DNA of 64,000 nucleotides from Myxococcales bacterium. GTDB taxonomy: Bacteria; Myxococcota; UBA727; VGSZ01. A program made the translations under genes and the position numbers. Where the stretch lies: positions 8,419 to 72,418 of the forward strand of contig JAHFED010000014.1 in the NCBI GenBank assembly GCA_023248635.1, in the 5' to 3' direction. Under the pieces are notes generated by a model. It saw only the letters and a list, made by a program, of their open reading frames with translations, was not told the DNA's origin and did not search any database. Shown one piece after another: positions 18,137-64,000 of the stretch (positions within the stretch are counted from its first letter, which is position 1; each line of letters begins with the position of its first letter).

Positions 18137-21136
18137 TCAGTGGGCCGCCACCTTGAACGCCGGTCTGCGCCACACCCAGACATCGGCGTCCACCTGCTGG
18201 TGCGGAGCTTGGGGCCACTCGGCCATGCTCACCGCGTCGACGATGCAACGCACGCTGTCGGCGTCGGCGCGCGCGAGGGCCTGTACCCTGCCCTTGGCCT
18301 GGCGCAAGACCAGGTGGAGCTTGACGCGATCGCTGCCGTCGTCGGGACAGGCTTCGATTTCGGCGCGTTGAGCAACGACGGCGGCCTCGATGGCCCGCAA
18401 CAAGGCATCGTCGAGCAGCACCGACGACGGCGGAGACGACGGCATCGCGCTTCGGCCCGGCGGGTCCTTCTTGCTCGGGGGCACAGGCGGGGACACCGCT
18501 TCGATCCGGGGGCTGGCGACGGCGAGCTTGCGCAAGCGCACGTTCAGCGTCGTGGGTCCGTTGACGACGACGGTATCCTCGGTGGTCTGGTAACCCGCGC
18601 GAACCACCCGCACGTTGTGGGGTCCGGCGTTGGCGTCGATGTGGTGCTCACGCTCTACATGGTCGATGAACACCGTGGCGTCAGCCGGGTCCGTCGTCAC
18701 CGTCAGCGCATCGGCCGCCCGCGGGCGCTCGGCGGGTGTGCTCGATCCGTTGAGCACGACGGCGATACCCACGGCGGCGACGACGAGAGCTGCGACGGCG
18801 GCAATAGGCCGCCCGGCTTGAGGGCAGAGAATTCCGGCGGCGGCGCGGCGCAGGGATCCTGGTCGTGCTCTGCGCGCTGCTGGTGGTCCTTTTTCCGGCT
18901 GTTCGTCGTGGAGGCGACCCGGCCACCAATTCCAGCGACCCAACAACTTCATCGTCGCCGGTACCAACACCGCGCGCACGACGGTGGCGTCGAGGGCCAC
19001 CGACACTGCGATGCCGAGGCCGAGCATTTTCATGCTCAACACCTGTGAAAAACCGAAGGCGCCGACAACGACCATCAACAACAACGCCGCCGACGTGATG
19101 GTGCGCCCGGTCTTCATCAAGCCGATGGCGACGGCGTCTTCGGTGTCGCCGTCCTTGCCGGCTCGCACGGCCTCTTCGCGGATGCGGCCGAGCAGCAGCA
19201 CCTCGTAATCCATGCTCAAGCCAAAAACCAAACAGAACATCACCAGCGGCGTCGTCGCGTCGGTGAAGCCCATCGATTCGTAGTGCAGCAAATTCTGGAA
19301 GCGGCCGTCTTGGAACACCCACACCAGCGCGCCGAAGCTGGCCGTCATCGACAAGCAGTTCATCACGATGGCCTTCAGCGGCACCACGATCGAACCGAAG
19401 GCCAAGAACAATACGAGGAACATCGCCACCCCCACCAGCGCCAACGCAAAGGGCGCGCGGGCCTCGAGGCGGTCGAGCAAGTCCACCAAGATGGCGGGTG
19501 CGCCGGCGACTTTGACGACGAGATTGGGGTCTGAAACCGAGCCGCCGCCACTGTCGTTCAGCACGCGCAACAACCGCACTTGTGTCGCCGTCACCGGGCT
19601 GTTGTAGCCGCCCTCCGACAACACCACGAAGCGCGCGTAGTGCCCATTGAGGAAACGCGCGAGCAGACTGCGCATCGACGGATCGAGGGCGTCGCGCCGG
19701 GTGGCCAGCAGGTCGGCGACGCTCGCGGGCGACACGCCCTCTTGCGCGGTGAACGCCGACTGAACCGCGATGACACCGGGGATGGCCTCCATGCGCTTTT
19801 GCACGTCGAGCAGACGCTGCAGATTCTTGCGGTCGAAGATATCGCCGTCGACGACGACGACGACATCGTGTGGGGTCATCTGGTTTGGCAGGAAGTTGTG
19901 GTTGAAGGCCTCGGTGGCCGCGCGCACGGGTGCGTCGTGGGGCAGCGCGCGGTAGTCGGGGATCGAGGGCACCATGCGCAAGAACGGCGCGGCCAACACC
20001 ACCAACCCGCCGCCCACGACGACGACGACAACGACGGGGTGCTTCATCACCTTCTTGGCCAAGGCGAAGAAGAAGGTGCCGTCGTCTTGCCCCGCTCCCG
20101 TCAGTGGCAAGCGCAAGGCCTCGACTTTGTGGCCCAGCAGCGACAGCACCGCCGGCAACAGGAAGATCATCAGGCCCATGGTCGAAACGACGACGACGAC
20201 GCCGGCGTAGCCCAAGCTGCGGATCATCATTTGCGGCATGGCCATCATCGCCATCATCGACAGCCCGACGACGACGCCGGAGAAGAACACCGCTCGCCCC
20301 GCCGAGCCCATCGAACGCGACACCGCGCCGGGTACGTCGTCGGGATGGGCGCGCAGCTCCTCGCGAAAACGCGTGACCACAAAGAGCGAGCAATCGATGG
20401 CCAACCCCAGCGCCAAGAGCGTGACGATGTTGGCGGCGAAGATGCTGACGTCGGTGACGAGGGTGAGCCCGCGCAAGGCCGCGAAGGCCACCAGGTTGGC
20501 GCAGATGCCCATCAGCAGCGGCAGGCCGGCGGCGACGACGCCCCGAAAGACCCACAACAGGACCAGCAACGTGATCGGCAACGCGAACAGCTCGCCCTGC
20601 ACGAGGTCATCGGCCATCGCCGTCGCGACGGCTTCGTTGACGAGAATGATGCCGGTGAATTGCACGACGATCCCCGACGACGGATCCGGCGTCAGCGCCG
20701 TCTTCAAGCGCAACAGCGCCTTTTGCTTTTCGTGCTCGGCTCCTTTGAGGGTCACCGTGACGGCGGTGTTGTGGCGGTCCTTCGAAACCAGCCACGGCGC
20801 ACCGGTCGTGTAGAGCGAGTCGACGCTCTCGGTGAGCGGATCGGCTTCGACGTGGGCGACGGCCGCCAGCACTTCGCCGAGGACTTCGACGTCGTCGACG
20901 CTGCTGCCATCGGGGGCCCGGTACAAAGCAACGATGTCCGCGGCGCCCTGGCCGAGCTCGCGTTCGATGAGGTCCTTGGTCTGCCAGCTTTCGGCGCCGT
21001 CGTCTTCGAAGCCGCCGCCTTTGAGGTGCGGCATGACCTCGGAGATCACCGGCACGCACAGCAGCACCAACACCAAGTGCCCAACGACAAAGCGCCAAGG
21101 CCGGTTGGCAACGAAGAGACCAAGGGTGGACAACAC
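18137..21136 (-). CDS. MMPL/RND-superfamily transporter fused to a C-terminal TM segment, a PEGA domain and an extra domain
   Basis: Twelve TM segments with two large loops (MMPL architecture). C-terminal 'TVTTDPADATVFIDHVEREHHIDANAGPHNVRVVRAGYQTTEDTVVVNGPTTLNVRL' (PEGA-like). Confidence 0.65.
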   Translation of the reverse strand: MLSTLGLFVANRPWRFVVGHLVLVLLCVPVISEVMPHLKGGGFEDDGAESWQTKDLIERELGQGAADIVALYRAPDGSSVDDVEVLGEVLAAVAHVEADPLTESVDSLYTTGAPWLVSKDRHNTAVTVTLKGAEHEKQKALLRLKTALTPDPSSGIVVQFTGIILVNEAVATAMADDLVQGELFALPITLLVLLWVFRGVVAAGLPLLMGICANLVAFAALRGLTLVTDVSIFAANIVTLLALGLAIDCSLFVVTRFREELRAHPDDVPGAVSRSMGSAGRAVFFSGVVVGLSMMAMMAMPQMMIRSLGYAGVVVVVSTMGLMIFLLPAVLSLLGHKVEALRLPLTGAGQDDGTFFFALAKKVMKHPVVVVVVVGGGLVVLAAPFLRMVPSIPDYRALPHDAPVRAATEAFNHNFLPNQMTPHDVVVVVDGDIFDRKNLQRLLDVQKRMEAIPGVIAVQSAFTAQEGVSPASVADLLATRRDALDPSMRSLLARFLNGHYARFVVLSEGGYNSPVTATQVRLLRVLNDSGGGSVSDPNLVVKVAGAPAILVDLLDRLEARAPFALALVGVAMFLVLFLAFGSIVVPLKAIVMNCLSMTASFGALVWVFQDGRFQNLLHYESMGFTDATTPLVMFCLVFGLSMDYEVLLLGRIREEAVRAGKDGDTEDAVAIGLMKTGRTITSAALLLMVVVGAFGFSQVLSMKMLGLGIAVSVALDATVVRAVLVPATMKLLGRWNWWPGRLHDEQPEKGPPAARRARPGSLRRAAAGILCPQAGRPIAAVAALVVAAVGIAVVLNGSSTPAERPRAADALTVTTDPADATVFIDHVEREHHIDANAGPHNVRVVRAGYQTTEDTVVVNGPTTLNVRLRKLAVASPRIEAVSPPVPPSKKDPPGRSAMPSSPPSSVLLDDALLRAIEAAVVAQRAEIEACPDDGSDRVKLHLVLRQAKGRVQALARADADSVRCIVDAVSMAEWPQAPHQQVDADVWVWRRPAFKVAAH

Positions 21137-21302: not shown

Positions 21303-23009
21303 TCAGAACGTCTTCAGCAACTCCAAGACGTCGGCCTTCTCCGCCTCGCTCATGGCATCGAAAGGCACCACGTGGCCCACGTTCGTACGGCCCGGCGACG
21401 TGGCGTCGTAGACCGCGGGCAACATCCAGGGAACGTAGTCGGGAGGAAAGCGCCACATGCCGTCGTCGTCGACGAAGCCCTTGATCCCGACCTTGTCGAA
21501 GTCGAGGGCATGGCCGCCTTGCTGAAAGCGGCGGGGTCGCGTGTCGGGATGCATGAGATGCCACAAGGTTGGCACCGAACCATTGTGCAGATAGGGGGCG
21601 GTGGCCCAGATGCCACTCAAGGTCGGGGCCACGTAGCCGCCGCGCGGCGCCGCATCGATGGCCGCGCCGACCGGGTAGTCGATCAAGTGCTCGAGCAGCT
21701 TTGCGGTCGCCGCATTGGCGCGCGCAGGGTCGGTGCCGATCTCCTCGAGCGATGACAGATGATTGGGGAATTCGACGACGTGGCTGCGTTGGCCCACCAA
21801 TTCGATGCTGCCGTGGCACGCCTGACAGCGCGCCGTCCACACACTCAGGCCACGCCGAGCTGCATCGATAGCGACCACGCCAGGAAAAGGCGGCGTGTCG
21901 GCGTCGGCGAAGAAGGCCATGACTTCACGCACGGCGGGCAGGTTTTCCTGGGCGGTCTTTGGAGCAACGCCAAGGGTGCTCACCGTGAAGAGCGTGCCAA
22001 TGGCGCCCACCTCTTGGGCGTGCGCGAGGCGATCGGGAGCGTCTCGGCGGTGGGGCGTGAAGGGCGCGTGTCCCTTGGGCGCATAGATGCCGTCGCACAA
22101 CAAGCTGCTGCGCACCTGCACCGAGATGACGTCGGGGATCTGGGTGAAGGCGATTTCGGCGGGGCCCAGCGTGGGGTTCAGCAGCCCGAAGTGGTTCTTG
22201 ATGTGGCCGACGGCGTTGCTGAGACCAGGGCCGCCGTTGTCGAAAGGCACCGGCTCAGCCGGGGCGTCGACGCCGCCGATGCGATGCAGAAACGCCGGCA
22301 ACATGATGTCGATGATCGTGCCGCGCTCGACGGGATCGAGTTGGGGGTAGATGCGGTCGAGCATCGCCACCACCGGTTGCGGGTCCCGCGCCGCCGCCTG
22401 GAGCGCCGCATAGACCTCGCTCGAATAGCGTCCAAGGTCGATCGACGTCGACGGCAACCCCAGCCAGACGTCGTGGGTCGGCAAGCCGCGCGCGTCCCAC
22501 AAGTTGCTGGCATGGCAGGTGGCGCAGCCGTGGTTGTTGGCCTCAAAGCGCACACGCGGAACCGCGCGGCGAATGTCGCCGCTGATGACGCCCAGGTTGC
22601 GCGACAGCGCGGGCGACGACGCCCCCGGCCAGTTGGCCACCGCGGACGCCCGGACGAAGCCATAGCGTTGCTCCAGCAGCGTCAGCCATCCTTCTTCCGA
22701 TGGCGCCACCTCGCCACCATCGAGGTGCGGCGCCGCCACCCCGTCGTGGCGGGTGAACATCGCCGCCACCGTCAGCTTCCAGGGCAACGCGTTGGTCTGC
22801 AGGGCATCGGTGTTGAGACTGCGAAAATCATCGAAGAGAAAACGTGCGGCGCCGAGCTCGCGGGCATCGGCAGGCGGGTGTTGTCCCCACCACGACAGCA
22901 ACGTCGACGACGGACCCTCGGCGTAGCCCCGCAGAAAGTCGCAGCCGGGGCCGAGCACCAACGTGCCCAGGAGCAACGCCGCGCGGATCACCAGAAAACT
23001 GCGATTCAT
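21303..23009 (-). CDS. Di-haem cytochrome c peroxidase (CCP/MauG) family lipoprotein
   Basis: Two CxxCH motifs (CATCH, CQACH). 'APTLSGIWATAPYLHNGSVPTLWHLM' (CCP signature). Lipoprotein signal 'LLGTLVLGPGC'. The start overlaps the upstream gene in an ATGA. Confidence 0.7.
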   Translation of the reverse strand: MNRSFLVIRAALLLGTLVLGPGCDFLRGYAEGPSSTLLSWWGQHPPADARELGAARFLFDDFRSLNTDALQTNALPWKLTVAAMFTRHDGVAAPHLDGGEVAPSEEGWLTLLEQRYGFVRASAVANWPGASSPALSRNLGVISGDIRRAVPRVRFEANNHGCATCHASNLWDARGLPTHDVWLGLPSTSIDLGRYSSEVYAALQAAARDPQPVVAMLDRIYPQLDPVERGTIIDIMLPAFLHRIGGVDAPAEPVPFDNGGPGLSNAVGHIKNHFGLLNPTLGPAEIAFTQIPDVISVQVRSSLLCDGIYAPKGHAPFTPHRRDAPDRLAHAQEVGAIGTLFTVSTLGVAPKTAQENLPAVREVMAFFADADTPPFPGVVAIDAARRGLSVWTARCQACHGSIELVGQRSHVVEFPNHLSSLEEIGTDPARANAATAKLLEHLIDYPVGAAIDAAPRGGYVAPTLSGIWATAPYLHNGSVPTLWHLMHPDTRPRRFQQGGHALDFDKVGIKGFVDDDGMWRFPPDYVPWMLPAVYDATSPGRTNVGHVVPFDAMSEAEKADVLELLKTF

Positions 23010-25045
23010 GAGATGACCTTTTCAAAGAGAGCCAGGCGATGAAGTTTCATGAGACCAGCCAGTTTCGCCTGCTTCAAACTAGGCTTGTTGGTATCACTGA
23101 TCCAGGTTCCGCCGACTTCGGTGTAGCCACCGTCCTGCAGTGCTTTCATCAGATCGTGGTTCAGCACGCCGATGACGCCCTGCCCGTGGTATTCCCGGCG
23201 CACCAGCATGATGATGACACTGGCGCGCCGCAGCCGTCGTCGACCCCACAAGAATGTCAGCAAAGACAACGGCGTGATGCGGCTCTTCATCCGGCGCAGC
23301 AGCGGGTTGGGATCGGGGATACAGATCGTCACGCCAATGGGCTGGCCATTGTGTTCAGCAATGCGCGTAAGAGCTGGATCCATGACGGTCTTCATAGAAC
23401 CCATCTGAAAGCGGGCTTCATCAGCTGTCATCGGCACAAATAGCGGATTCTTATCCATCGAATCATTGAGCAGCTGCCGGACGATTTCGATGTCGTCGTC
23501 GTAGCGCTTCATGTTGAACGTGCGCCACGTGTAGCTCGGGTCGGCGAGCAGGGCGCGGTGCTTGTCGGTGACCATGGTGTTCAGGTCCATGCTGGCGAGG
23601 TCGCGTTTGATGAAGGTCGTCATCGGCATCGACGCCGTGTAGCCCAGCTCTCCCAGCAGGCGGCCAATGTGACGGGGCTGGAACATCTGGGCCACGAAGG
23701 GCTGCAGCTCCTCGCCCTCGGTGAGGGCACCGATCTCCTGGTTGGCGGTGAGGTTCATGTTGCCGCGCATCAGGTTGCAGCCATGGGCGCGGGCAAAGGC
23801 CTCGGCCTTGTCGAGCAGCGCCTGTGCGACCTCTTTGTCGTCGGCGCAGTCGAAGAAGCCGAAGCTGGCCGCCTTTTCCCCGAAGCGCTCGTTGGCCGCG
23901 TGGTGCACGTGGGCGACGATGCGCCCGGCGGGCACGCCGTTTCGGAGCGCCGTGAAATAGGTCCCTTCGGCCCGTTGCCAGTGCGGGTTCTTGCGCTCGT
24001 CCAACAAGGCCTCGAGGTCGCCGCGCATCATTGAGACCCAGGGAATCTCGCGGGGGTAGACATGAAAGGGCACTTCGAAGAAGGAGGCGAAGTCGCGCTC
24101 CCGCAGCTCCAGGGTCGGCGCAGCCGTGGACGCCGCCGCCGTCGACGACGACTGATGGCCTGGGGTCGCGTTGATGTCGTTCAGGAAGCGGCGAACGAAG
24201 AAGCGCCGCACGGCGGCCACGGGCCAGCTCTTGTTGCGCTCGGCCTGCCCCGTCCAGGGATTGAAGAACACCCCACCGGGACCCGGGCCGCCCGACTTGC
24301 GCAACACCACGCGCACAGCCTCGTAGGCCATGAGGCAGCCCGTCATCCACACCATCGGCGCGAAGCTGATGCGCTTGCGTTTGCCAGTGATCATCTCGGC
24401 GGCGCGCGCCATCACCACATGATCGGCCGTCGACGATTGCGTCATGACCCACTCGATCTCTTTGCGGGCGCAGCCTCTCACGACGTCGTCGTCGAGCCGA
24501 TCGAGAGCCAATCGGGCCGAGGGATAGTCGAAGAGTTGCTCGGGCCGTGGATCGCCGGGACGCACGACGTAGACATTGGGCAGCGTGGACGCGAAGGCGT
24601 CGATGACGGTCTTGCCCAGGTCCCGGGCCTTGCGCATCAGCGCGATGGTGGCCCGCACGTCGTCGCAGCCATTGATGACGACGTCGACGCGGCCGAGGAT
24701 CTCCTCCAGCTGGCCGGGCCAGGTGTGACCATGGTGAACGATGACCTCGCAGGTCGGGTTGATGCGCTCGATCGCCGACTTCGTGGCCGCCGTCTTTTCG
24801 ACGCCGACTGTGTCGAGGTTCGCGAAGATCTGGCGGTTGAGATTCGAGACTTCAAAGACGTCCATGTCGGCGATTTCGACGTGGCCGACGCCGCAGCGCA
24901 CCAAGCAAGCAACGGCGGCGCCGCCCATGCCGCCAACGCCGGCGACGAAGACACGCGCGCCGCGCAAACGCTGCTGTTCTTCTTCGGTGATGAAACCGAT
25001 GTTGCGCGTGGTGAAGTCGCCGTAGTCAAAGGGAACCGTGCTCAT
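23006..25045 (-). CDS. ThiF/MoeB E1-like adenylyltransferase fused to a C-terminal tandem GNAT-like acyltransferase module
   Basis: N-terminal 'VFVAGVGGMGGAAVACLVRCGVGHVEIADMDVFEVSNLNRQ' (E1 nucleotide-binding motif). A Ser/Ala linker follows. C-terminal about 360 aa includes 'RREYHGQGVIGVL' (GNAT R/Q-xx-G-x-G/A-like motif). Confidence 0.65.
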   Translation of the reverse strand: MSTVPFDYGDFTTRNIGFITEEEQQRLRGARVFVAGVGGMGGAAVACLVRCGVGHVEIADMDVFEVSNLNRQIFANLDTVGVEKTAATKSAIERINPTCEVIVHHGHTWPGQLEEILGRVDVVINGCDDVRATIALMRKARDLGKTVIDAFASTLPNVYVVRPGDPRPEQLFDYPSARLALDRLDDDVVRGCARKEIEWVMTQSSTADHVVMARAAEMITGKRKRISFAPMVWMTGCLMAYEAVRVVLRKSGGPGPGGVFFNPWTGQAERNKSWPVAAVRRFFVRRFLNDINATPGHQSSSTAAASTAAPTLELRERDFASFFEVPFHVYPREIPWVSMMRGDLEALLDERKNPHWQRAEGTYFTALRNGVPAGRIVAHVHHAANERFGEKAASFGFFDCADDKEVAQALLDKAEAFARAHGCNLMRGNMNLTANQEIGALTEGEELQPFVAQMFQPRHIGRLLGELGYTASMPMTTFIKRDLASMDLNTMVTDKHRALLADPSYTWRTFNMKRYDDDIEIVRQLLNDSMDKNPLFVPMTADEARFQMGSMKTVMDPALTRIAEHNGQPIGVTICIPDPNPLLRRMKSRITPLSLLTFLWGRRRLRRASVIIMLVRREYHGQGVIGVLNHDLMKALQDGGYTEVGGTWISDTNKPSLKQAKLAGLMKLHRLALFEKVIS

Positions 25046-26034
25046 CGCACCACCTCAAGGTCGTCGGAGGCATGCAGCGGACGCCCGCGCACGTCATGAT
25101 CAGGAGCCACCAACCAGCGCGCCAGGGGCGAGAGCACACCCAGGACGACGATCAAAAATGCGCGCCAAGCGATTTGGACAGGCGCGCTCTTGGGCAGCTT
25201 CGAGCGGAACAAGCGCCAAACGACCATGATGCTGCAGCGTCCGATCTGCAGCACGTCGTCGCCGCGCTCGTAGTCCAACATCGTGCGGCACATCTCGTTG
25301 ATCGCCGGGTCGCGGTGCTTCGGCGCGCTCTCCCAGGTTTTTTTCAATTCGTCGCTGCCGCCGGTGTAGGCGTTGGTGATGATCTGCCGAGCCTCGTCGA
25401 AGCCGGCTTCGGCGCCGACCCCGAAGGCGGGCCGGTGGTTTTGCACAATGGCCCGGGCCAACAGCAGGTGCATGAAGCTCTGGCGCGCGCGCGGATCAGG
25501 CCGGGGATAGACGTCCTGGTAGTGGTGGGCGGTGAGGCCGACGGCAGCGGGTACCTGCGAGACGTTCGAAATCCAAAACCCGCGCAGCCCGCCTTTCATC
25601 AGCAGCAACAGCGTCGACGCGCCATACAAGAGGTTCGAGAGGTGCCGGTGCTGGTGGTCGGGGGTCACATAGAGCAGGCCCAGGTGCACGACGCTCACCA
25701 TGCGCACACCAAAGGGGATGTCGAAGTAGGCGAGCGCACAAAAGGCGATGGGCTCGCCCGTGCGCTTCAACGACACCTGCGTCAAGCAACGTCGGGCGAG
25801 GTCCGCGCGGTCGCCGAGCAGGGCACCATACAGAGGCACAGGCTTGCCGCGTTGTCCGGCTTTGGCGACGATGCGCATGTTGCTGACGAGGGCGGCGAGC
25901 ACCTCGTCAGACACCCAGGCGCCGGGTCGATCCCACATCTCGACCAGCAGGCCGCCATCCGACGACGGGATGGTGAACCCCGTGTGAAAGCGGTCTTGGC
26001 CCAGCACCAATGCCGAGAGGGCACCCGTCATCCG
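25042..26034 (-). CDS. Hypothetical GNAT-like protein, paralogous to the C-terminal module of the E1 fusion
   Basis: ATG at 26034 (MTGALSALVLG...). 'MVSVVHLGLLYVTPDHQHRHLSNLL'. ATGA overlap with the downstream gene. Confidence 0.45.
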   Translation of the reverse strand, partial: RMTGALSALVLGQDRFHTGFTIPSSDGGLLVEMWDRPGAWVSDEVLAALVSNMRIVAKAGQRGKPVPLYGALLGDRADLARRCLTQVSLKRTGEPIAFCALAYFDIPFGVRMVSVVHLGLLYVTPDHQHRHLSNLLYGASTLLLLMKGGLRGFWISNVSQVPAAVGLTAHHYQDVYPRPDPRARQSFMHLLLARAIVQNHRPAFGVGAEAGFDEARQIITNAYTGGSDELKKTWESAPKHRDPAINEMCRTMLDYERGDDVLQIGRCSIMVVWRLFRSKLPKSAPVQIAWRAFLIVVLGVLSPLARWLVAPDHDVRGRPLHASDDLEVVR

Positions 26035-27296
26035 GGCTCCTTCGCCGACGCCGGTGCGATTGCCGGGGCGGTCGTCGACGATGGCCCGATCAACAGCAGG
26101 CGCACCATGGCGCCGGCCACCACCATGGCCTGGCGGTGAGTGCTGCCAGGCACCAAGGCCGTGAAGCCGAGTCCGAAGGCGGCGCCGTCGTCGGACACGC
26201 ACAGGATGGCATCGAGCTCGTGGGTTGCCAGCAGGTGCGAGGCCTGCTCGGCGCCGCGCAGCACCAGGGGATCGGTGGCAGCAGCCCGCAAGAAGCGCAG
26301 GTCGGCGGGTTCGACGACGCCCGTGAGCACGTTGCCGCGGGCAAGCAAGCGCGGGAGAAGATCCAAGCGCAGCGCGAGCAACCCGGCGGCGTCAACGACG
26401 ACCGCCGTGCGAATTTCTGGCCATCCGCGCAGGGACGTCAGAAACGCTTCGAGCGAGGTCACGGGGAGCGCGGCCAGGCGCAGCAACAGGGTGTCGACGT
26501 CGCGGGTGCGCGCATGGGCGACAGCCGATCCCACCGGCAACCAAGCCACCGCCAGGAAGAACACCACCACCGCCGTTGGAACGCCGGCCGTCGCGGGTTT
26601 GGCTTCCACCAAAGCCACGAGGCCGCCGGCGGTGAGGCTGCCGATGAGCAGCGCTGCCAGCGTGCCCAAGGTCCGGCGGAGCCGAAAGCGTGCCTCGGCG
26701 AACAAGGCCTCGCCGACGATGAACAACAACAAGAGCAGCAAGACCGCGCCGAAGCGCTTACTGGGGGCGCCGAAGCTCACGGCCCAATCGTTGGCGATGG
26801 CCAATACGGCGAGCAGCGTGCCCACGAGCAGCGCACCCGCGGTGGCCCGCCGGGCAGCATCGTCGGTGACGGCGGCGCTCCAGCCGAGGAAGGCCAGCAA
26901 GCCGACGAACACCAGCACCTGCCACGCCCCGACGACGCTGAGGAACTCCGGCGTGTGCACGACGCCGGGGACCGCGGCCGCCGCCGGGACACCGACAACG
27001 CCCGCCAACAACAGGAGCTTCAACGGCAATGGCAACGACGCGGGCAAGGCGCTTTCGACGAACAAGGCCGCCAACAGCGGAAAAACGGCGAAGGCCACGA
27101 ACGTCAGCCAGGTCAGCGGCGCCCAGGGCGAGACTGCGTCGAGCGCCCGCAAGATGAGCGCCGAGCCGAGCGCCAACAAGAGCGCAGCGAAGCGTGTCTG
27201 GATGCGCCGTCGATCGTGCTGCGCCAACATAACGATGGCCGTGACGACGACGGCGACGGCGACGCCGATGCTGGCAACCCATTCGATTCGTTCCAC
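26028..27296 (-). CDS. Polytopic membrane protein (about 8 TM) with a cytoplasmic domain of about 150 aa. First gene of the operon.
   Basis: GTG at 27296. Multiple hydrophobic helices. It overlaps the next gene. Confidence 0.45.
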   Translation of the reverse strand: MERIEWVASIGVAVAVVVTAIVMLAQHDRRRIQTRFAALLLALGSALILRALDAVSPWAPLTWLTFVAFAVFPLLAALFVESALPASLPLPLKLLLLAGVVGVPAAAAVPGVVHTPEFLSVVGAWQVLVFVGLLAFLGWSAAVTDDAARRATAGALLVGTLLAVLAIANDWAVSFGAPSKRFGAVLLLLLLFIVGEALFAEARFRLRRTLGTLAALLIGSLTAGGLVALVEAKPATAGVPTAVVVFFLAVAWLPVGSAVAHARTRDVDTLLLRLAALPVTSLEAFLTSLRGWPEIRTAVVVDAAGLLALRLDLLPRLLARGNVLTGVVEPADLRFLRAAATDPLVLRGAEQASHLLATHELDAILCVSDDGAAFGLGFTALVPGSTHRQAMVVAGAMVRLLLIGPSSTTAPAIAPASAKEPG

Positions 27297-29266: not shown

Positions 29267-30640
29267 TCAGCGCCTCAGGCTGCCGGTCAACAGCGCATCG
29301 TTCAGCGCGCGCGCCGCCCCCACCTTGTCGGCGCCCAACCTGTCTTTCCCCGACGTCGCCAACAGCGGGCCGAGCACCTTGGGCGACAGAGAGACCACCA
29401 CCGTGCGGCCACGGGCCAGGGCCGTGAGACCTGCCTCGATGTGCTGGCTGCCCGCGCGGCTCAAGACCCAATCGCCCACCCGCAACGCCGCGACCTCTTT
29501 GAGCTGGCCCTCGACCTCGCCTTCGTCGCCGACGACGGCGGCACCGTCGACCACCATCCACAGACCGTCGCTGTCGTGAAAAGCATTGAAGAGCTCGTCG
29601 CCATCGGCCAGCTCGCGTTCGTTGAGGCTGGCGGGCAGCTGCTCTTTGTCGGCCTTGGGGAGGGCCGCAAAGAGAGGCACCTCGAGCAACAGGGCAGCGA
29701 TGAGGCGATCGCGCATGAAGCCCACCAGGGCCGCACGTGCGGTGGGGTGCTGCTGCAGCAGGCTGGAGATCGCGAGCCGGTCGATCTCGAAGTACTCAAG
29801 CTCCGTCTCGGCGGTGAGCGTGGCCTGGCGGACCTCGGCAGCGACGAGGGCGAAGATGCCCGCGAGGTCGCCGGGGCGCAGCCGATCGACCTCGACCTCG
29901 ACGCCGTCGACCAGTCGGCTCACGCGCGCGACGCCTTTGGTGATCACCAGACAGGAGTCGCCCGCATCGCCCCGCGAGAACACGACGGCGCCGGCGTCGG
30001 CGCGCTGCCGCATCATCGCGTGGCCCAAGGACACGAAGGCCTGGGGATCGAGAGAGGCAAACAGGGGAACCCGGGTCAGCACGCCGTCGTTGAGGCTCTG
30101 GCTGTCGTCGAGGGCCGAGATGAGGTCGTCGTCGACTTCCTCGGGCTCGATTTCGGCACCCACTTCGTCGGCCTCGCGCACCACCTGCAGCTCGCTGGTG
30201 GGCTCGGGACGGATGGCGCGCCAGATGCCGGTGACGGTCTGGGGCAGTCCTTCGGCCAGGACCTCGACGGCTCCCGGTGACGGCGGAGATGGGTCGTGGA
30301 TGGGCACAGCGACGCGCCCGCGGTTGCTGACGTCGGCGGCACGGGTGCGCGCGTAGAGCTTGGCGAGGAAAAGCAGGGACTCTTCGTGCTTGGAGTTGAC
30401 CTGCAGCAGCTCCTTCAAAACGGCGATGGCCTGCAGAGGGTGCCCCGCCAGCGAGAGGTAGCGAGCGACGGCGCCGTAGTGGGCCACGGCGTCGTCGCCG
30501 GCATTGAGCAGTCGATAGGTGCGAGCGATGCGCATGCGGGCATCGAGATCCATGGGCCGATCCTCCAGCCGCTCCTTGAGCAGCCTGAGGTTCTTTTTCA
30601 GCTCGGCCTTCGACGGCATCGTCGACATGAGCGCATCCAT
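29267..30640 (-). CDS. Tandem cyclic-nucleotide-binding (cNMP) domain protein with an N-terminal TPR-like region
   Basis: Two cNMP-binding folds ('VVFSRGDAGDSCLVITKGVARV', 'ELFNAFHDSDGLWMVVDGAAVV'). The ATG at 30640 lies next to repeat C. Confidence 0.6.
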   Translation of the reverse strand: MDALMSTMPSKAELKKNLRLLKERLEDRPMDLDARMRIARTYRLLNAGDDAVAHYGAVARYLSLAGHPLQAIAVLKELLQVNSKHEESLLFLAKLYARTRAADVSNRGRVAVPIHDPSPPSPGAVEVLAEGLPQTVTGIWRAIRPEPTSELQVVREADEVGAEIEPEEVDDDLISALDDSQSLNDGVLTRVPLFASLDPQAFVSLGHAMMRQRADAGAVVFSRGDAGDSCLVITKGVARVSRLVDGVEVEVDRLRPGDLAGIFALVAAEVRQATLTAETELEYFEIDRLAISSLLQQHPTARAALVGFMRDRLIAALLLEVPLFAALPKADKEQLPASLNERELADGDELFNAFHDSDGLWMVVDGAAVVGDEGEVEGQLKEVAALRVGDWVLSRAGSQHIEAGLTALARGRTVVVSLSPKVLGPLLATSGKDRLGADKVGAARALNDALLTGSLRR

Positions 30641-30644
30641 ACAG

Positions 30645-30735
30645 GAATTCATCGCCGCCAGGCGATGAACCTGTAGACAATTCACCGACACGCGCAGCGC
30701 GTCGGTGAATTCACCGAGCGCGCTTCGCGTCGGTG
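30645..30735 (+). repeat. Repeat C copy 2
   Basis: 'GAATTCATCGCCGCCAGGCGATGAACCTGTAGACAATTCACCGACACGCGCAGCGCGTCGGTGAATTC'. Confidence 0.75.
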
Positions 30736-30746
30736 CCCAGGGGTGG

Positions 30747-33719
30747 CTACAGGGCCTCCCAGAGGAAGATGCCCTGCACGTTGTAGACGGGGGCGCCGGG
30801 GGGCTGCTTCTCGGGGACGTCGAGATGGAAATCGTAGCCCTCGTCGCGGCCTGGGGCGTTGAAGCCATAGCGCTTGGGGGAGCCGTCGCCGGTGCCGTTG
30901 GTGCCGGCGGCTTCGTAGACAGAAGCAAAGCCCGCGACCATAGAGCCAAAGTAATGGGAAGGGACGTCGCCGCTGCTGTTTTGCCACTGTTCATTGTACT
31001 TCATGAAATTCTCAATGCCGTCGTCATGAAATCCGGTCGAGGCCTCAGATTGCAGCCATCCTGAAAAGACCTCGAAATTGTGGATGGTCTCGAGGGCGAC
31101 GTGGCCGAAGATCGGATAGGGGACGCCCCAGCGCGCATTGAGGTCGTCGAAGCCTTTGGACTGGCGGATGACGCGGTCGCCGGCGATCAAGACGGGCACG
31201 AAATAGTCACCGGTCGGCAAGGTGGCGGGATCGACTTGAGGCGTGGTCTCGATGTTGACGTCGCCCAGCACGTAGACGGGCAGATTGCTGGCGATGGTGA
31301 GGCCGTGGGGCAACACGCCGGCGGCGATGGTGAGGGCCCCCGCGGCCGTCGTGCGGTTGGCGACGGGGTTGATGCGCTCGGCGTTGATGACGCGAACGGC
31401 GTTGGGATAGGCAGCGATGGCGCCGCCGGCGGCGCGATAGGTCGAGCAAGCCGGAATGCGGAAGCGCTGGCCGCCTTGTCGATCGTAGACTCGATTGATG
31501 ACAGTGACGTCGCTTGCACACAGCTGAGACGGCAGAGCCTCGTTGATCTGCTGCTCTGCGGGCTGCTGAACACCGACGGAATTATTGTACTGTGCTAAGC
31601 CCGTGAAGACGTCGGGCTGGGCAGCATCGTTGGTCACCGACGTGCCTTGGAAAGGCCAGGAGCGGGGGACGTTGGAGCTGGTCGCGGTGTCGCCCAAGCC
31701 GTCCAACGAGCCGCCGGCGGGATCGCGCCAGGTCGCGGTGACATAGACGATGCCGTTGAACTCGCGCCCCGAGGCGCCGCTGCAGGTCTTGGGAAAATAG
31801 CTGCCGAGCTCACCGACCGCGCAGTCTTTGAGGGCGGCCTGCAGGGCAGCGAGGTCGATGTTGATGGGCAGGATGCGCGAGCGGTCGCGCTCGTTGTCGG
31901 TGACGCCGTCACCCATGTTGGTGCCGGCCAGGGCCTTGCCGACGTTGTCGGGTCGCAGCGCCAGCTCCCCAGACGACGACGACGACGGAATGCTGCGGAC
32001 CTCGATCCAACCGCTGCGAAAGCCGCTGCGCGTGGCGTTGAGCAAAGCGGAGTGGTGGTTGGCTCCGCAGGCGCTGAAGTTGTCGGCGCGGCGCAGGCAG
32101 CCGTATTCGCTGAGGGTGATGTTGGCGCTGCCGTCGTTGGTCTTGCCGACGTTGGGGATGGTGACGCCGGTGGTGACGCAGGTGCTGACCGACGTGGCCA
32201 GACAGATGGACTTGGCGTTGCCGGCCGGCAGCGCCGCGCCACCCGTGCTCGTGCCTTGCCAAGACCCCGGGTACCAATAGGGCCGGGTGCCGCCGACGCC
32301 GTCGTCGGGGTCGCGAAACAGAGCGCCGTAGGAGAGCACCGCGGGGGGGTCGGTAGCCGCGCGGGTCATGAGGCCGAGGCCGCCGTCGCCCGCAGCGAAG
32401 TAGCCGTAGTAGCTGAAGCGCCGGGGGGTGGTGGTCCAGGAGCGCTGGGTGCGGAGGTGCTCTTGGCCCACAGACAACGTCGGCGCTGGCAGCTCGGTGG
32501 GCTCTTCGCTGGCGATGGTGTGCAAGCCGGGGTGGTCCGACCAGATGGGCGTGCCGGGCTTGTCGGGGTCGTTGTCGTCGCGCAGGTACCAGGTGCCATT
32601 GATGATGCGCAGATCGGCCTTCCAGGCGAGCTTCTGCTCGCGCACGTCCTGGGGCTCGGTGATGAGCACGGGGTCGACGACGAAGCGCTGGTTGTCGAGG
32701 TTGGATTCTTCGTAGGTCGCCGCCGGCTGACCGAATTGAGTGACGGCGAGGTTGTAACCGGTCTGCACCCGGGGTTGCCCGGTGATCGGCAGCTTGAGCT
32801 TGGTAACCCCATGGACGCTGTCGAGCACCCGCCCATTGAAGGTGGTTTCGGCGAAGGTCCGCCAATCGGAGGCAGTGTGATCCTTGGTGAGGGTGCCAAA
32901 GGTGGTGAAGCTGCTGCTGTTGGCGAAGCGCACGTTGCTGGCGGTGCTGGGCTGAGAGGCCCGGCAGGGTTTGCCGACGCCGACGTTGGCGGACACCCAC
33001 GATTGGTAGATGCCGCCGGCGGAGGTCACGCGATCGCCCTTGAGGCCACTGGTCGTGCCCGCGGCGCCAGCGATGCAGATGTTCTGGTTGCCGTGCACGC
33101 GCCCCCGCACCGTCATCAAGGGCACGGGATCCCAATCGAGGTAGACGTCGGAGAAAATGAAAAACTGAAAAGCCGACACCGTGCCCAGCACGACCTTTTG
33201 GTGGCAGGCCGCGGATGCCAGGCCGGCGATGTGTTGCACCCGTACCTTCATGTCGAGGGGAGATTGGGCGGCGATCATGCCCTCGAAGGGTCCGCTGGGG
33301 AGCGGCTTGGTTTGTCGGGCGCCGAGGTTGAGGACGTCGAAGCCCGGCACCGACGTCGGCGATCCCTTGGTCTCGTAGTTTGCCGGCGTGATGAGGGGCA
33401 GCCCGCTGCCGCCGCCGTTGGTGGAGACGTAGGACTCCATGCCCGTCGCCGTCGGCAGCGGGGTCACCGCGAGATAGTTCTGCGCGAGCACGGCAGTGAT
33501 GCGGCACATGTCGTCGGCGGCGTAGAAGGCCTGACGTTCCTTGAGCGCGGCACCAGTGGCCCTCGATCCCGCCGACACGGAAGAAATGAAGCTGAAGATG
33601 CCCACCGTCAGGAGCAAGAGCAGAAAGAGCACGAAGGGAATGGCGTAGCCGCGGGGCCGCGCCTTCCCCGCTCGAGCACATCTCGGCTCAACATCGCGCT
33701 GCATCGAAGGGCTCCTCAA
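30747..33719 (-). CDS. Large PilX-like type IV pilus assembly/tip protein (990 aa)
   Basis: PilX-like N-terminal hydrophobic segment 'GYAIPFVLFLLLLLTVGIFSF'. It is the last gene of a FimU-PilV-PilW-PilX-type operon and overlaps the upstream gene in an ATGA. Confidence 0.55.
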   Translation of the reverse strand: MRSPSMQRDVEPRCARAGKARPRGYAIPFVLFLLLLLTVGIFSFISSVSAGSRATGAALKERQAFYAADDMCRITAVLAQNYLAVTPLPTATGMESYVSTNGGGSGLPLITPANYETKGSPTSVPGFDVLNLGARQTKPLPSGPFEGMIAAQSPLDMKVRVQHIAGLASAACHQKVVLGTVSAFQFFIFSDVYLDWDPVPLMTVRGRVHGNQNICIAGAAGTTSGLKGDRVTSAGGIYQSWVSANVGVGKPCRASQPSTASNVRFANSSSFTTFGTLTKDHTASDWRTFAETTFNGRVLDSVHGVTKLKLPITGQPRVQTGYNLAVTQFGQPAATYEESNLDNQRFVVDPVLITEPQDVREQKLAWKADLRIINGTWYLRDDNDPDKPGTPIWSDHPGLHTIASEEPTELPAPTLSVGQEHLRTQRSWTTTPRRFSYYGYFAAGDGGLGLMTRAATDPPAVLSYGALFRDPDDGVGGTRPYWYPGSWQGTSTGGAALPAGNAKSICLATSVSTCVTTGVTIPNVGKTNDGSANITLSEYGCLRRADNFSACGANHHSALLNATRSGFRSGWIEVRSIPSSSSSGELALRPDNVGKALAGTNMGDGVTDNERDRSRILPINIDLAALQAALKDCAVGELGSYFPKTCSGASGREFNGIVYVTATWRDPAGGSLDGLGDTATSSNVPRSWPFQGTSVTNDAAQPDVFTGLAQYNNSVGVQQPAEQQINEALPSQLCASDVTVINRVYDRQGGQRFRIPACSTYRAAGGAIAAYPNAVRVINAERINPVANRTTAAGALTIAAGVLPHGLTIASNLPVYVLGDVNIETTPQVDPATLPTGDYFVPVLIAGDRVIRQSKGFDDLNARWGVPYPIFGHVALETIHNFEVFSGWLQSEASTGFHDDGIENFMKYNEQWQNSSGDVPSHYFGSMVAGFASVYEAAGTNGTGDGSPKRYGFNAPGRDEGYDFHLDVPEKQPPGAPVYNVQGIFLWEAL

Positions 33720-36357: not shown

Positions 36358-38391
36358 TCAGCCGCCGCCGGGCAAGCCAGACGTCGTCAAATCGGGATCG
36401 CTGGTCGGGCTGCGCTCGAAGACGACCTGCTTCAGGCTCCCTGTCCCTCGACGAGAGAGCAGCTCCTGCTGCACCAGGCCCGACTGCACATTGTAATGCC
36501 AGTAGCCGATGGATTTTCCAAACCCGCCTTTGATGCCCGATAACGTCTGTAACACCAGGCTTTTTTCATCGAATGGCAGCGCAAGCACATTCTTTTTGTA
36601 CTGCTCGGTCCAGGGCCAACACTCGGGAGCATTGCTCGGATAGTAGATGCGAATGGTTACACCCATCGCCCGCGCGGCAGCACCAATCCCCTGCATAGAA
36701 TCTTTAGCGAGCATGTCACCCTTCAAGATGTGAATGCGACCCTGCTGAAAGAGCGTACGGATGTATTGATACGCCGGCTCGGTTCCCAACCAGCCAAAGG
36801 AGGGATCTTCGGATTGGTCGCCGACCTTGACCCCCGCTTTTCGCACGGGGGCGTCGGCAGCGGCGGTGGGCGCCTTGACGATATCGGGGACGCTGACTTC
36901 GCCGTCGGCCTGGTGTTCATAATATTGCAAAAGGCTGGCGCGGCTGACGCTGTAGAGCTCGCGGAAGGCAGCGAGCTCGGGGTCTGCTTTGTAGGTCTCG
37001 GCCAAGACGGCGAGCACGCGATCCTTGGCTTCGGGGCGGAAGTGATCGATGAAGGCCTTGCGGTCGGCGGCGTCGACGATCACCGCGCGCAGCACCTTGT
37101 GCAGCCGCACAACGGTCGGGTCGTAGTCAAAGAGCCAGGCCCAATCCGAGTGCGCGTGGGCGATGAATGAGTAGTTCTGATCGATGCCGACGCCGACGTA
37201 GCCGCCGCCGATGTTGTCGACGTAGGGACGCCAAACGTGTTGGCGCGGCTCGTTCGATTTAATATAGTGATTCGGATCTCTGCAGTCTATAAAACTCCGA
37301 CCTTTTTCGGCACAGACTTGCTTCGCCAGTACGTCTTCTTTGATCGAGGTCGCGAGCTTCAACTGCTGGGCCGAAGGCGGCGTCGGCGCCGGCGGCACCG
37401 GGCGCTTCTCGGTGAGCACGCGGGGCGGTGAGGTGGTCAGCGTCGTCGACGTCGACGCGCAGCGCACGCTGAGGCGGTGGTGGCTGGTGAGCAACACTTC
37501 GCCGCGGCGGAAGAAGGGTGTGGCTTGGTTTTTCGGCCAGTACCAGGAGCCACCCTTGAGCACTTTGCGCACGTCCTGGCCGGTGCAGGGGTAGTTGCCG
37601 TCGCAGGGGCCGCGGGGATCGCGGCCGTTGCAGCGAGGTCCGCAGGATCCGGTCCCGGAAGCGCGGGTGTCTGCGAGGAACCACGTCGACGTCCACTCGA
37701 AGCCGTTGCCGGCCATGTCGAAGATGCCGTAGTGGCCGGCCGGGTAGCTGCCGACGGGCTTGGTGGCGTGCTCGACGCAGTCCCACTCCTCTTTCTTGCC
37801 GGGATAGGGCTTGCAGCCTTTGGGGGCGCAGTCGCGCACTTGGGCTTTGTCACAGCTGAAGGGATCGTTGCCCCAGGGCCAGGCGTCGCCGTTGGGACCG
37901 CGGGCGGCTTTCTCCCACTCCCACTCGGTGGGCAGGCGCTTGCCGGCCCAGACGCAGAAGGCTTGGGCACGGGGCCAATCCAGCGGCATGGCGGGGTTGT
38001 CGGGGCCCACGAAGGGCTGCATGATTTTCTCGTTGAAGCTCGGGATGTCGAGGGCGGTGCAGGCTTTGGCGGCGACGCACTCCTGGTAGGCGGCCTGGGT
38101 GACCTCTTTTTGATCGATGTAGAAAGTCGAGAGCTCGACCACGCGTTTGGGCGAGCCTTTTTCGCTGTCGTCGCCGACGATGGCGGGCCCCCCTGGCACG
38201 CAGCTCATGCCCGCCGGCGCCTTGGCACAAGCCGCAAAGCCCGCCGCCGCCGCGGTCTCTGACTGCTTGGGCAGCGTCTTCCAGTCTGACGCGGTCCCGC
38301 TGTTGCTGTCGGGGGCGGTGGCCGATCCTGTGGTGATCGGAGTCGCAGTGGCAGTGAGGGCGAAGGTGAGGGCGACGACGACGAAACGCAT
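36358..38391 (-). CDS. Secreted FGE-sulfatase (SUMF1/formylglycine-generating-enzyme fold) domain protein with an extra C-terminal domain
   Basis: 'WPRAQAFCVWAGKRLPTEWEWEKAARG...GIFDMAGNGFEWTSTWF...RKVLKGGSWYW'. Confidence 0.75.
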   Translation of the reverse strand: MRFVVVALTFALTATATPITTGSATAPDSNSGTASDWKTLPKQSETAAAAGFAACAKAPAGMSCVPGGPAIVGDDSEKGSPKRVVELSTFYIDQKEVTQAAYQECVAAKACTALDIPSFNEKIMQPFVGPDNPAMPLDWPRAQAFCVWAGKRLPTEWEWEKAARGPNGDAWPWGNDPFSCDKAQVRDCAPKGCKPYPGKKEEWDCVEHATKPVGSYPAGHYGIFDMAGNGFEWTSTWFLADTRASGTGSCGPRCNGRDPRGPCDGNYPCTGQDVRKVLKGGSWYWPKNQATPFFRRGEVLLTSHHRLSVRCASTSTTLTTSPPRVLTEKRPVPPAPTPPSAQQLKLATSIKEDVLAKQVCAEKGRSFIDCRDPNHYIKSNEPRQHVWRPYVDNIGGGYVGVGIDQNYSFIAHAHSDWAWLFDYDPTVVRLHKVLRAVIVDAADRKAFIDHFRPEAKDRVLAVLAETYKADPELAAFRELYSVSRASLLQYYEHQADGEVSVPDIVKAPTAAADAPVRKAGVKVGDQSEDPSFGWLGTEPAYQYIRTLFQQGRIHILKGDMLAKDSMQGIGAAARAMGVTIRIYYPSNAPECWPWTEQYKKNVLALPFDEKSLVLQTLSGIKGGFGKSIGYWHYNVQSGLVQQELLSRRGTGSLKQVVFERSPTSDPDLTTSGLPGGG

Positions 38392-61988: not shown

Positions 61989-62441
61989 TCAGACGCCGTC
62001 GACGAGGCGATCGAACATGGGTCCGGTCTCCTGCAGCCGCTGGGCGAGGCGCTCGGTCACGTTCATCAACAACTTGATGCAGGCCTGCGGCCGCTGTTTC
62101 TGCAGGTTCAAAAAGTCACGGCGTGGGATTTCAATGACGCCGACCGCCGTCTTGGCACGGGCCGTGACACGCCGCGGACCGGGTTGCAGCAGAGAGAGCT
62201 CGCCGAAAACGTCGGGGGCAGAGAGGGCGCTCAGCTCGCGCAAGGTGCCGTCGCGCTCGACGGAGATGGAGACCTGCCCCGCCACGAGCAAGAAGGCGCT
62301 TTCGCCGTGCATCTTCTCGACGAAGATCGGGTTTCCGACGTCGACCTGCCGGGCGATGCACACCGTCTCGATGATCCGGATGCCATCCGGGGAAAAGCCG
62401 GCGAGCAGCGGGCTCTGCTCAAGGTAGGGAAACAGATCCAT
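61989..62441 (-). CDS. Single cNMP-binding-domain protein (150 aa)
   Basis: ATG at 62441. 'GESAFLLVAGQVSISVERDGTLRELSALSAPDVFGELSLL'. Confidence 0.6.
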   Translation of the reverse strand: MDLFPYLEQSPLLAGFSPDGIRIIETVCIARQVDVGNPIFVEKMHGESAFLLVAGQVSISVERDGTLRELSALSAPDVFGELSLLQPGPRRVTARAKTAVGVIEIPRRDFLNLQKQRPQACIKLLMNVTERLAQRLQETGPMFDRLVDGV

Positions 62442-62597
62442 CGCGCTCCCACCCAGCCACGGCCACGGACGGGCCACGGGCACCGACACGACAGGCGCAG
62501 CCCCGGAAGCAAGGCACACTACCGGCTCGCCAAGGCCGAGGGCAAATAAGACTGCAGCCACCATGGCGTCGAAGTCCAGCGTCGGTGGCACAGCGAC

Positions 62598-62632
62598 CGG
62601 GCGGCGGTCGAACATCAAGCGGACGCGGGATA
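62598..62632 (+). repeat. Repeat B fragment (3' end only)
   Basis: GGCGGTCGAACATCAAGCGGACGCGGGATAAG. Confidence 0.6.
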
Positions 62633-62642
62633 AGGTCGAACC

Positions 62643-63845: not shown

Positions 63846-63851
63846 GCGCTC

Positions 63852-64000
63852 AGGGCTCGTCGCTGCCGAGGCCTGTGCCGCCTTCGGACACGATGGCCAA
63901 AGCCCCACGCCGCACCAGCGGCGTCGACGTCGCCACCACTGCACCGGTCAGGCGTCGGGGTCCGGCGTCTTTGACGGCTTTGGGCTGCACCTCGGCCGAG
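63852..64000 (-). CDS. 3' end of a minus-strand gene that continues beyond the window (function unknown)
   Basis: The frame is open to the window edge and ends '...AIVSEGGTGLGSDEP*' with its stop at 63852. It converges on the previous gene. Confidence 0.3.

Follow-up and report, generated by a model that had tools for sequence, protein, structure and literature searches.

What does an E1-like adenylating enzyme do when it shares one polypeptide with a tandem acyltransferase and one operon with a polytopic membrane protein and a di-haem protein? The question is raised by a locus in the genome of a Myxococcales bacterium (GCA_023248635.1, contig JAHFED010000014.1, positions 8,419-72,418); the 64,000 nt analysed, with a base composition of about 65-70% GC, are referred to as the window, and window coordinates are used throughout. 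A preliminary description of this locus had proposed a run of four translationally coupled genes on the minus strand. In line with this, we find four minus-strand open reading frames (ORFs) at 21303-27296 that overlap by 4 bp at all three junctions, each time as ATGA and at none of them as GTGA, which had also been named. In the direction of transcription, they encode a polytopic membrane protein of 422 residues (TM, 26028-27296), whose GTG start has the same position in the orthologue on contig L001, a GNAT-fold protein of 329 residues (X, 25042-26031), a fusion protein of 679 residues (23006-25045), and an exported or membrane-anchored di-haem protein of the bCCP/MauG/RoxA superfamily with 568 residues (21303-23009). 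The fusion comprises a ThiF/E1-like adenylating domain (residues 1-289; 24179-25045), a Ser/Thr/Ala-rich linker (DINATPGHQSSSTAAASTAA; 24119-24178) and a tandem-GNAT domain that we refer to as GNAT2 (residues 310-679 and the stop codon; 23006-24118). A scan for promoters and terminators was uninformative, as it detected nothing that resembles a promoter, and terminator-like sites were no more frequent than expected by chance; a divergent Metallophos gene lies upstream.

With a probability of about one half, we read this operon as the Myxococcota variant of a widespread cassette that makes a small molecule derived from a lipoamino acid, of the oxazolone or N-acyl-(dehydro)amino-acid type. The cassette consists of a core pair, X and TM, and an optional tailoring set, which comprises ThiF, GNAT2, usually a nitroreductase-fold flavin oxidase (FDO, also NTR) of the Acg/TyzC type, and sometimes a periplasmic di-haem enzyme. 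In known oxazolone pathways, an N-acyltransferase (OxzA, TyzA, TrzA), a ThiF-like ATP-dependent cyclase (OxzB-N, TyzB, TrzS-N) and an FDO (OxzB-C, TyzC, TrzS-C) produce N-acyl oxazolones from aromatic amino acids (bioRxiv 10.1101/2020.06.11.147165; PMC10404671; PMC12856293; PMC12479983); the respective genes are OxzAB of Pseudoalteromonas rubra, TyzABC of M. tuberculosis (Rv2336-Rv2338c) and TrzAS (Rv1356c/Rv1355c, TrzS being Rv1355c). The adjacency of ThiF and FDO is typical of such clusters and is treated as diagnostic for them (PMC10404671; PMC12856293; bioRxiv 10.1101/2020.06.11.147165; PMC12479983). The combination of a ThiF-like cyclase with an N-acyltransferase and a nitroreductase-fold oxidase is thus not undescribed, as had been supposed for the window operon, and is that of the oxazolone pathways (bioRxiv 10.1101/2020.06.11.147165; PMC10404671; PMC12856293). 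The cassette is, in our view, best understood as a variant of these ThiF-cyclase/N-acyl-amino-acid pathways and not as a categorically new architecture.

That these genes belong together is seen from their neighbourhoods in other genomes. X is a member of a large, unannotated family with more than 985 matches, and we confirmed at least 581 X loci in GTDB species genomes, 80 of which were fetched and their ORFs classified by phmmer, with full flanks available for 59. In all 59, as well as in loci L031 and L035, X adjoins TM. Thirty of them also carry ThiF, accompanied by GNAT2 in 28, an FDO in 26 and a di-haem CCP gene in 8, while the remaining 29, mostly from Bradyrhizobium, hold X and TM alone. 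In the long loci, overlaps of 1-4 bp join neighbouring genes. The usual order in Proteobacteria is X-ThiF-TM-GNAT2-NTR, with the CCP gene convergent, and that in Myxococcota is (CCP)-TM-X-GNAT2-ThiF(-CCP), with no NTR. This synteny, conserved across dozens of genomes, and a ThiF::CCP fusion found elsewhere bear out the functional link between ThiF, the GNATs, the membrane protein and the CCP that had been proposed from the window alone.

The taxa with X include Bradyrhizobium, Bosea, Ensifer, Rhizobium, Ruegeria, Halomonas, Myxococcota, Bdellovibrionota, Bacteroidota and Verrucomicrobiota. The full cassette is found on large secondary replicons in Rhizobium sp. WL3 (plasmid NZ_CP042825.1, 498047-504464; locus L088), Ensifer adhaerens and Shinella; on the Rhizobium plasmid, its genes carry the RefSeq names hypothetical protein, ThiF family adenylyltransferase, hypothetical protein, GNAT, hypothetical protein and c-type cytochrome. 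In the Halomonas locus, the NTR falls into the Acg family of FMN oxidoreductases (E 4e-44) and has a further match in the oxidase half of the ThiF-NTR fusion models for Rv1355c (TrzS) and PRK14851. Literature searches on BRADO6155/6156, on oxazolone with ThiF and GNAT, and on E1-like enzymes with GNAT and nitroreductase returned no description of the cassette, and none of the alphaproteobacterial or myxobacterial taxa was present in the supplement of PMC10404671, where we looked for them. In Bradyrhizobium sp. ORS 278 (L003/L004 6743-10201, the BRADO6155 region), the X and TM pair comes after genes for PspA and YiaAB that share its strand, a context that may hint at a link to envelope stress.

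The adenylating domain carries the features expected of a ThiF-like cyclase. It matches the Pfam ThiF family at residues 14-250 (E 2e-37), and its top NCBIfam matches are PRK08223 and PRK14851/14852, which are ThiF-NTR models. Across 46 family members, the GxGxxG motif (GVGGMGG), DMD, SNLNRQ, a Lys and NGCDD are invariant, and neither a conserved Cys nor a Zn-binding CxxC is found. As in the cyclases of the oxazolone pathways, the adenylation site is intact, including the Asp equivalent to D217 of TrzS, and the catalytic Cys of E1 enzymes is absent. The nearest solved sequence homologue is TcdA (E 9e-15), also known as CsdL, the ATP-dependent cyclodehydratase of tRNA t6A, which likewise uses ATP to cyclise the carboxylate of an N-acylated (carbamoylated) amino acid with no ubiquitin-like protein (Ubl) as a partner; it differs in that the similarity is limited to the Rossmann half (residues 21-141), that it acts on tRNA, and that it is unlinked to GNATs, FDO or membrane proteins. 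Judged from these motifs and matches, the ThiF domain is a predicted ATP-dependent carboxylate activator or cyclase. A sulfur-relay or molybdopterin role was also considered, and rejected for the lack of a Cys, a CxxC, a carrier and a rhodanese.

Outside its immediate family, BLAST and a neighbour-joining tree relate the domain to ThiF domains that are themselves joined to other enzymes. Alignments over the full length were obtained with ThiF-NTR di-domain proteins (3e-30), FeeM-ThiF (3e-30) and ThiF-PlsC (7e-37), in an overall range of 1e-24 to 1e-37, and TcdA, MoeB and ThiF of E. coli align with the Rossmann half only (1e-14 to 1e-16). The fusion partners of the more distant relatives comprise NTR (in seven proteins), the FeeM N-acyl amino acid synthase (P0283 and P0268), PlsC acyltransferase, glycosyltransferase and methyltransferase. 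By sequence comparison, the window ThiF thus forms a separate family inside a larger ThiF group that is associated with lipid or amino-acid acyltransferases. Two other proteins, P0016 and P0017 (973-979 residues), are bona fide members of the Rv1355c/TrzS family with an extra N-terminal domain of about 240 residues and no Pfam match; as this domain sits where the upstream trzA acyltransferase gene would, they may be acyltransferase-ThiF-FDO triple fusions.

The C-termini of proteins or peptides are the targets of most characterised ThiF/E1 enzymes, and this counts for a different role, in which ThiF would adenylate the C-terminus of a ribosomal peptide or protein, be it in an MccB/PaaA-like maturation of a ribosomally synthesised and post-translationally modified peptide or on a Ubl or sulfur carrier, with the GNATs and a MauG/MbnH-like di-haem enzyme modifying it further. 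MauG and MbnH are indeed di-haem enzymes that modify protein residues, and the E1 Rossmann region of the window protein weakly matches the Cap2 E1-E2 models of PADLOC; since only this generic region is matched, the cassette is not a defence system. Yet we regard such a role as highly improbable. A search for small and GG-terminated ORFs in and around the locus gave only out-of-frame shadows of real genes, no E2, JAB, beta-grasp, rhodanese or YcaO gene is found in the operon or among its neighbours, and, besides the missing Cys and CxxC in ThiF, the C-termini of X and TM are unconserved. The combination that marks the canonical E1 systems (MoeB, ThiF, Cap2/Bil), with a GG/beta-grasp partner, a Cys/CxxC and an E2, JAB or rhodanese, is therefore missing here, and the original observation that no Ubl, E2 or JAB partner is visible holds, down to the level of conserved small ORFs.

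The second half of the fusion points to the acyl-CoA-dependent branch of the GNAT superfamily. Its C-terminal repeat matches Acetyltransf_1 in Pfam (residues 557-658 of the fusion, E 8e-7), and an AlphaFold model of residues 306-679, built on 13 homologues, has a tandem-GNAT fold with a pLDDT of 88, so that, together with the ThiF match, the E1 plus double-GNAT architecture first assigned to this protein stands. Its supposed kinship to FemAB and the MprF synthase domain is not supported. In Foldseek searches of the PDB, the top matches of the model are the acyl-CoA tandem GNATs 5kf1 (glucosamine N-acetyltransferase), 2wpw (clavulanate tandem GNAT), 7q3a (MAB_4324) and MshD, with E-values of 4e-14 to 4e-9, TM-scores of 0.5-0.7 and identities of 11-15%; FemX, FemA, A-PGS, MprF and the aminoacyl-tRNA-dependent peptide synthases rank lower, at about 1e-8 and TM-scores of 0.36-0.45, and the FemX/MprF class is surpassed by 5-6 orders of magnitude in E-value. 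Neither Pfam nor NCBIfam gives a FemAB or DUF2156 match for GNAT2, and its profile has no significant match among PDB sequences. In the alignment, an HGQGVIG stretch in the C-terminal repeat resembles the pyrophosphate-loop motif of CoA binding, Q/RxxGxG/A, although the fit is inexact. GNAT2 is thus a predicted acyl-CoA-dependent N-acyltransferase. It has in common with 5kf1, 2wpw, 7q3a and MshD the architecture of two GNAT repeats and differs from them in that none is fused or linked to an E1-like enzyme and in that its only family-level match to a hidden Markov model (HMM) is Acetyltransf_1. Distant GNAT2 homologues (28-29% identity) stand alone, without ThiF, on plasmids of Streptomyces, Nonomuraea and Roseomonas (H11-H15); that of Roseomonas mucosa is annotated as 'dATP pyrophosphohydrolase', which is probably a mis-annotation.

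The GNAT module is also where the direction of the pathway is at stake. The preliminary description had ThiF feeding the GNAT, a flow that is the reverse of the known pathways, where the acyltransferase acts first and ThiF then activates the carboxylate of its product (bioRxiv 10.1101/2020.06.11.147165; PMC10404671; PMC12856293). We keep it as a rival that we consider unlikely: ThiF would form the adenylate of a fatty acid or an amino acid, and GNAT2 and/or X would pass the acyl group on to a membrane lipid or a cell-wall precursor, in a tRNA-independent analogue of MprF or FemABX with TM as the flippase. The ThiF::GNAT2 fusion is suggestive of channelling, but in either direction, as a fusion alone is silent on which enzyme acts first. 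MprF has a polytopic membrane domain next to its synthase, and the cassette likewise never lacks a polytopic membrane protein; the double-GNAT fold of GNAT2 is common to FemX, MprF and the aminoacyl-tRNA peptide synthases, though at the lower rank given above. An oxazolone or acyl-adenylate, being activated, might moreover serve directly as the acyl donor of a GNAT. On the other hand, the best structural matches and the family match of GNAT2 lie with acyl-CoA enzymes, we know of no characterised GNAT with an acyl-adenylate as donor, and the Cys-less enzymes of the ThiF family, TcdA, TyzB, TrzS and MccB, resolve their adenylate intramolecularly. In addition, most genomes have the TM gene between ThiF and GNAT2, along with an FDO that is typical of oxazolone clusters; TM has no similarity to the flippase domain of MprF, and neither ThiF nor FDO has a role in the MprF and FemABX systems.

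X, the constant element of the cassette, is a single-domain GNAT. The GNAT fold that had been proposed for it is supported by a model with a pLDDT of 86, in which the domain is followed by a conserved extension, with the stretches NAYTGGSD..LKK, APKHR and LDYxRGDD, and by a C-terminal hydrophobic helix (residues ~282-311); the length of 331 residues given earlier is corrected to 329. X had also been taken for a divergent paralogue of the tandem module, for which we find no support, as it has a single GNAT and hhalign assigns a probability of 1.5% to the pair, no meaningful match. Profile searches against PDB sequences gave nothing significant for X. We consider it a probable membrane-anchored N-acyltransferase that uses acyl-CoA or an acyl carrier protein (ACP). 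The X orthologue on contig L001 (8040-9028) is divided between two overlapping ORFs of 188 and 148 residues, probably owing to a frameshift or sequencing error in this metagenome contig.

For its partner, TM, hydropathy gives about 8-9 hydrophobic stretches ahead of a C-terminal soluble domain (about 160 residues); the protein is 40% identical to its L001 orthologue. The TM proteins of all clades can be aligned, with P73, E81, K93, G99, D170 and E350 invariant, and in the loci of Flavobacteriales and Bacteriovoracaceae a divergent ORF with 9-10 TM segments lies directly upstream of X. Neither X nor TM has a match in Pfam or NCBIfam, including in a permissive scan of seven TM homologues, and a profile of the TM alignment retrieved only unannotated proteins of about 394 residues from a database of 5.8 billion sequences, a search in which low-complexity transmembrane words limit the tool. 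TM is the universal partner of X and belongs to no known family.

The fusion that drew attention to the locus turns out to be a single, recent and lineage-specific event and not a family, as the E1-GNAT architecture had been taken to be: all relatives keep ThiF and GNAT2 as separate, tightly linked genes. In a search of 5.8 billion protein clusters, the fused protein was found once, as a singleton, and its C-terminal half matched standalone proteins of about 374 residues at 40-72% identity. On the nearest contigs, L001 and L002, the gene order is TM, X, ThiF (302 residues), a spacer of 67 bp and GNAT2 (376 residues), and the DNA alignment shows that about 31 nt have been lost in the window, the stop codon of ThiF included. 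The linker DINATPGHQSSSTAAASTAA is accordingly the former intergenic spacer, read through after the loss of this stop.

Given a single fused sequence among 5.8 billion clusters, and a metagenome-assembled genome (MAG) as its source, an assembly or frameshift artefact, or a meaningless chance juxtaposition, has to be considered. We find this barely credible. Two assemblies, the 112-kb MAG contig and the one that Logan made independently from run SRR14366783, contain the identical 679-residue ORF, its joint is a clean in-frame deletion of a stop codon relative to L001 and L002, the 4-bp coupling downstream is intact, and the two halves are adjacent or nearly so in about 30 other genomes from several phyla. 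Even an artefactual fusion would leave the conclusion on the operon unchanged. Minor in itself, the singleton served as a Rosetta stone for the whole system, and it is not the only one. P0012 (833 residues), on a metagenome contig from ERR4592245, combines ThiF with a signal-peptide-like transmembrane helix, LGLAAVLCATVGFSAAC, and a di-haem CCP, a topology that implies a cytoplasmic ThiF and a periplasmic haem domain; the order on its contig is GNAT2, a 305-residue protein and ThiF::CCP. ThiF::GNAT2 in the window and ThiF::TM-helix::CCP in P0012 both support the functional linkage of the cassette.

Two further arrangements of the same genes were observed. In a Myxococcota MAG (L010, 8349-10538), GNAT2 and ThiF follow each other in the order opposite to the window, in the same frame and with a single stop codon between them, so that the pair is one mutation short of a GNAT2::ThiF fusion. 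P0192, a representative of 412 residues, has the C-terminal half of a cassette-type ThiF followed by an apparent, shortened protein of the TM family, and could be either a fusion of ThiF with TM or a fragment that arose by a frameshift.

The last gene of the operon encodes a di-haem protein that, like the bCCP, MauG, MbnH and RoxA enzymes, has two c-type haem motifs (CxxCH, at C162 and C395), a RoxA-like cytochrome-c domain (RoxA-like_Cyt-c in Pfam, 79 bits against a cut-off of 26.7) and periplasmic targeting. Its N-terminal signal contains a Cys at position 23 within an atypical lipobox (LGPGC). With 113 bits, the protein remains under the cut-off of 150 for the NCBIfam model CytoC_perox, which makes it a divergent member of the superfamily; in the PDB, it matches RoxA (4b2n) and the di-haem enzyme 6e1c over short stretches only, and it shares 36% identity with the CCP of the Halomonas locus. 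To our knowledge, no other member of the bCCP/MauG/RoxA group is linked or fused to a ThiF enzyme, as seen in P0012.

Downstream on the same strand, 167 bp from the CCP gene, begins a gene for an RND-type transporter of the MMPL family with a PEGA domain (18137-21136; Pfam MMPL, E 1.5e-67). Its place next to the operon parallels that of mmpL9, which adjoins the tyz cluster of M. tuberculosis (PMC10404671), and by this analogy it could be an exporter for the operon product. As none of the 80 other loci has an MMPL gene next to the cassette, it was rejected as a conserved component.

Taken together, these assignments suggest a route. In the first step, a GNAT would move an acyl group from acyl-CoA or acyl-ACP onto the amino group of an amino acid; GNAT2, fused to ThiF, is the prime candidate for this step, with X as an alternative or as the enzyme of a second acylation. 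Since X is membrane-anchored and is the core enzyme of the genomes that have X and TM only, its part may be the synthesis of the basic lipoamino acid or the attachment of a second acyl chain. ThiF would then adenylate the free carboxylate of the N-acyl amino acid and, because there is neither a catalytic Cys nor a Ubl partner, the adenylate would be resolved by the attack of the amide oxygen, yielding a 5(4H)-oxazolone, as in TyzB, TrzS, OxzB and TcdA. In most relatives, the FDO could desaturate this product. In the window, which has no FDO, the product would be either a saturated, reactive oxazolone or one that the di-haem enzyme oxidises outside the cytoplasm, where this enzyme is expected to work and, in Myxococcota, is perhaps the sole oxidase. 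Insertion into the membrane or export would fall to TM, and here perhaps also to the MMPL protein. The lipid-type product that had been suggested for the operon from the start remains plausible on this route.

The likeness to the known oxazolone pathways (OxzAB, TyzABC, TrzAS and the NasY-ThiF-NTR clusters of Stieleria, Thalassotalea and Massilia) lies in a Cys-less ThiF in one operon with one or more N-acyltransferases of the GNAT fold, in an Acg/TyzC-type FDO in most relatives of the cassette, in recurrent fusions of acyltransferase and ThiF such as the FeeM-ThiF proteins, in an MMPL neighbour and in a broad spread over phyla. The differences are a tandem GNAT and X in place of a FeeM/TyzA-like enzyme, an obligatory protein with 8-9 transmembrane segments, a frequent periplasmic di-haem enzyme, the lack of an FDO in the window and in Myxococcota, a ThiF family of its own that is far from TrzS, and the half of all loci that has X and TM only.

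Several of these differences, and some further results, weigh against an oxazolone-type role. For neither GNAT2 nor X is a relationship to the FeeM/TyzA/OxzA type (NasY, Acetyltransf_5) detectable by Pfam, NCBIfam or hhalign, where the FeeM domain gave no meaningful match with either; FeeM is a mid-ranking structural match for X, and no N-acyl amino acid synthase of this type is adjacent to ThiF in the window operon. No FDO is encoded in the 64 kb of the window or in six related Myxococcota loci (L008-L013), in contrast to the ThiF loci of other clades (26 of 30), and the conserved TM and the di-haem enzyme are without a counterpart in the known pathways. The window ThiF belongs to a tight, separate family, with just 37 relatives at E<=1e-30 in an exhaustive HMMER search of 1.84 billion representatives; its C-terminal half has no significant similarity to ThiF-NTR fusions in a single-sequence search, and bona fide Rv1355c/TrzS-family proteins score 1e-12, more distant than MoeB. 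On present alignments, it is thus not demonstrably part of the TyzB/OxzB/TrzS cluster, which was represented in the comparison by Rv1355c-family proteins. Because half of the loci have X and TM only, the primary function of the cassette requires no ThiF. The analysis shows how the genes are built, which folds their products adopt, that their linkage is conserved, that the adenylation site is intact and how the fusion arose; an oxazolone or N-acyl dehydro-amino acid as the product is a prediction.

A serious, if tentative, possibility is that the cassette represents a hitherto unrecognised envelope-lipid or signal pathway in multiple phyla, whose product is of a new chemical class and not of the tyrazolone/tryptazolone type, and in whose Myxococcota form the haem enzyme replaces the flavin desaturase. 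Examples of such a product would be a lipoamino acid that is doubly acylated, oxidised or cross-linked, and an azlactone that serves the membrane as an activated donor of acyl groups.

The discovery of oxazolone lipids and N-acyl dehydro-amino acids dates only from 2020-2025, and these compounds have been linked to resistance to oxidative stress and to macrophage survival in M. tuberculosis. If the oxazolone-type assignment is true, the cassette extends ThiF-cyclase chemistry to a larger and taxonomically broader gene set, to which it adds three protein families without any annotation, as well as a haem enzyme in the periplasm, a hint that processing takes place outside the cytoplasm. As the cassette is found in the cultivable and genetically tractable Ensifer adhaerens, Bosea and Bradyrhizobium, its product and function are directly testable, and the generically annotated cassettes on rhizobial replicons offer good experimental entry points.

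Elsewhere, the window contains several large ORFs without a Pfam match (e.g., 30747-33719), together with genes for an FGE-sulfatase and DUF7790 protein (36358-38391, minus strand), two cNMP-binding proteins and a 1203-residue Kelch-repeat protein, and a NuoG-like protein, the further coordinates of this set being 29267-30994 and 61989-63944 on the minus strand and 30-3641 on the plus strand. These genes form a typical chromosomal context for Myxococcota and are unlinked to the cassette.

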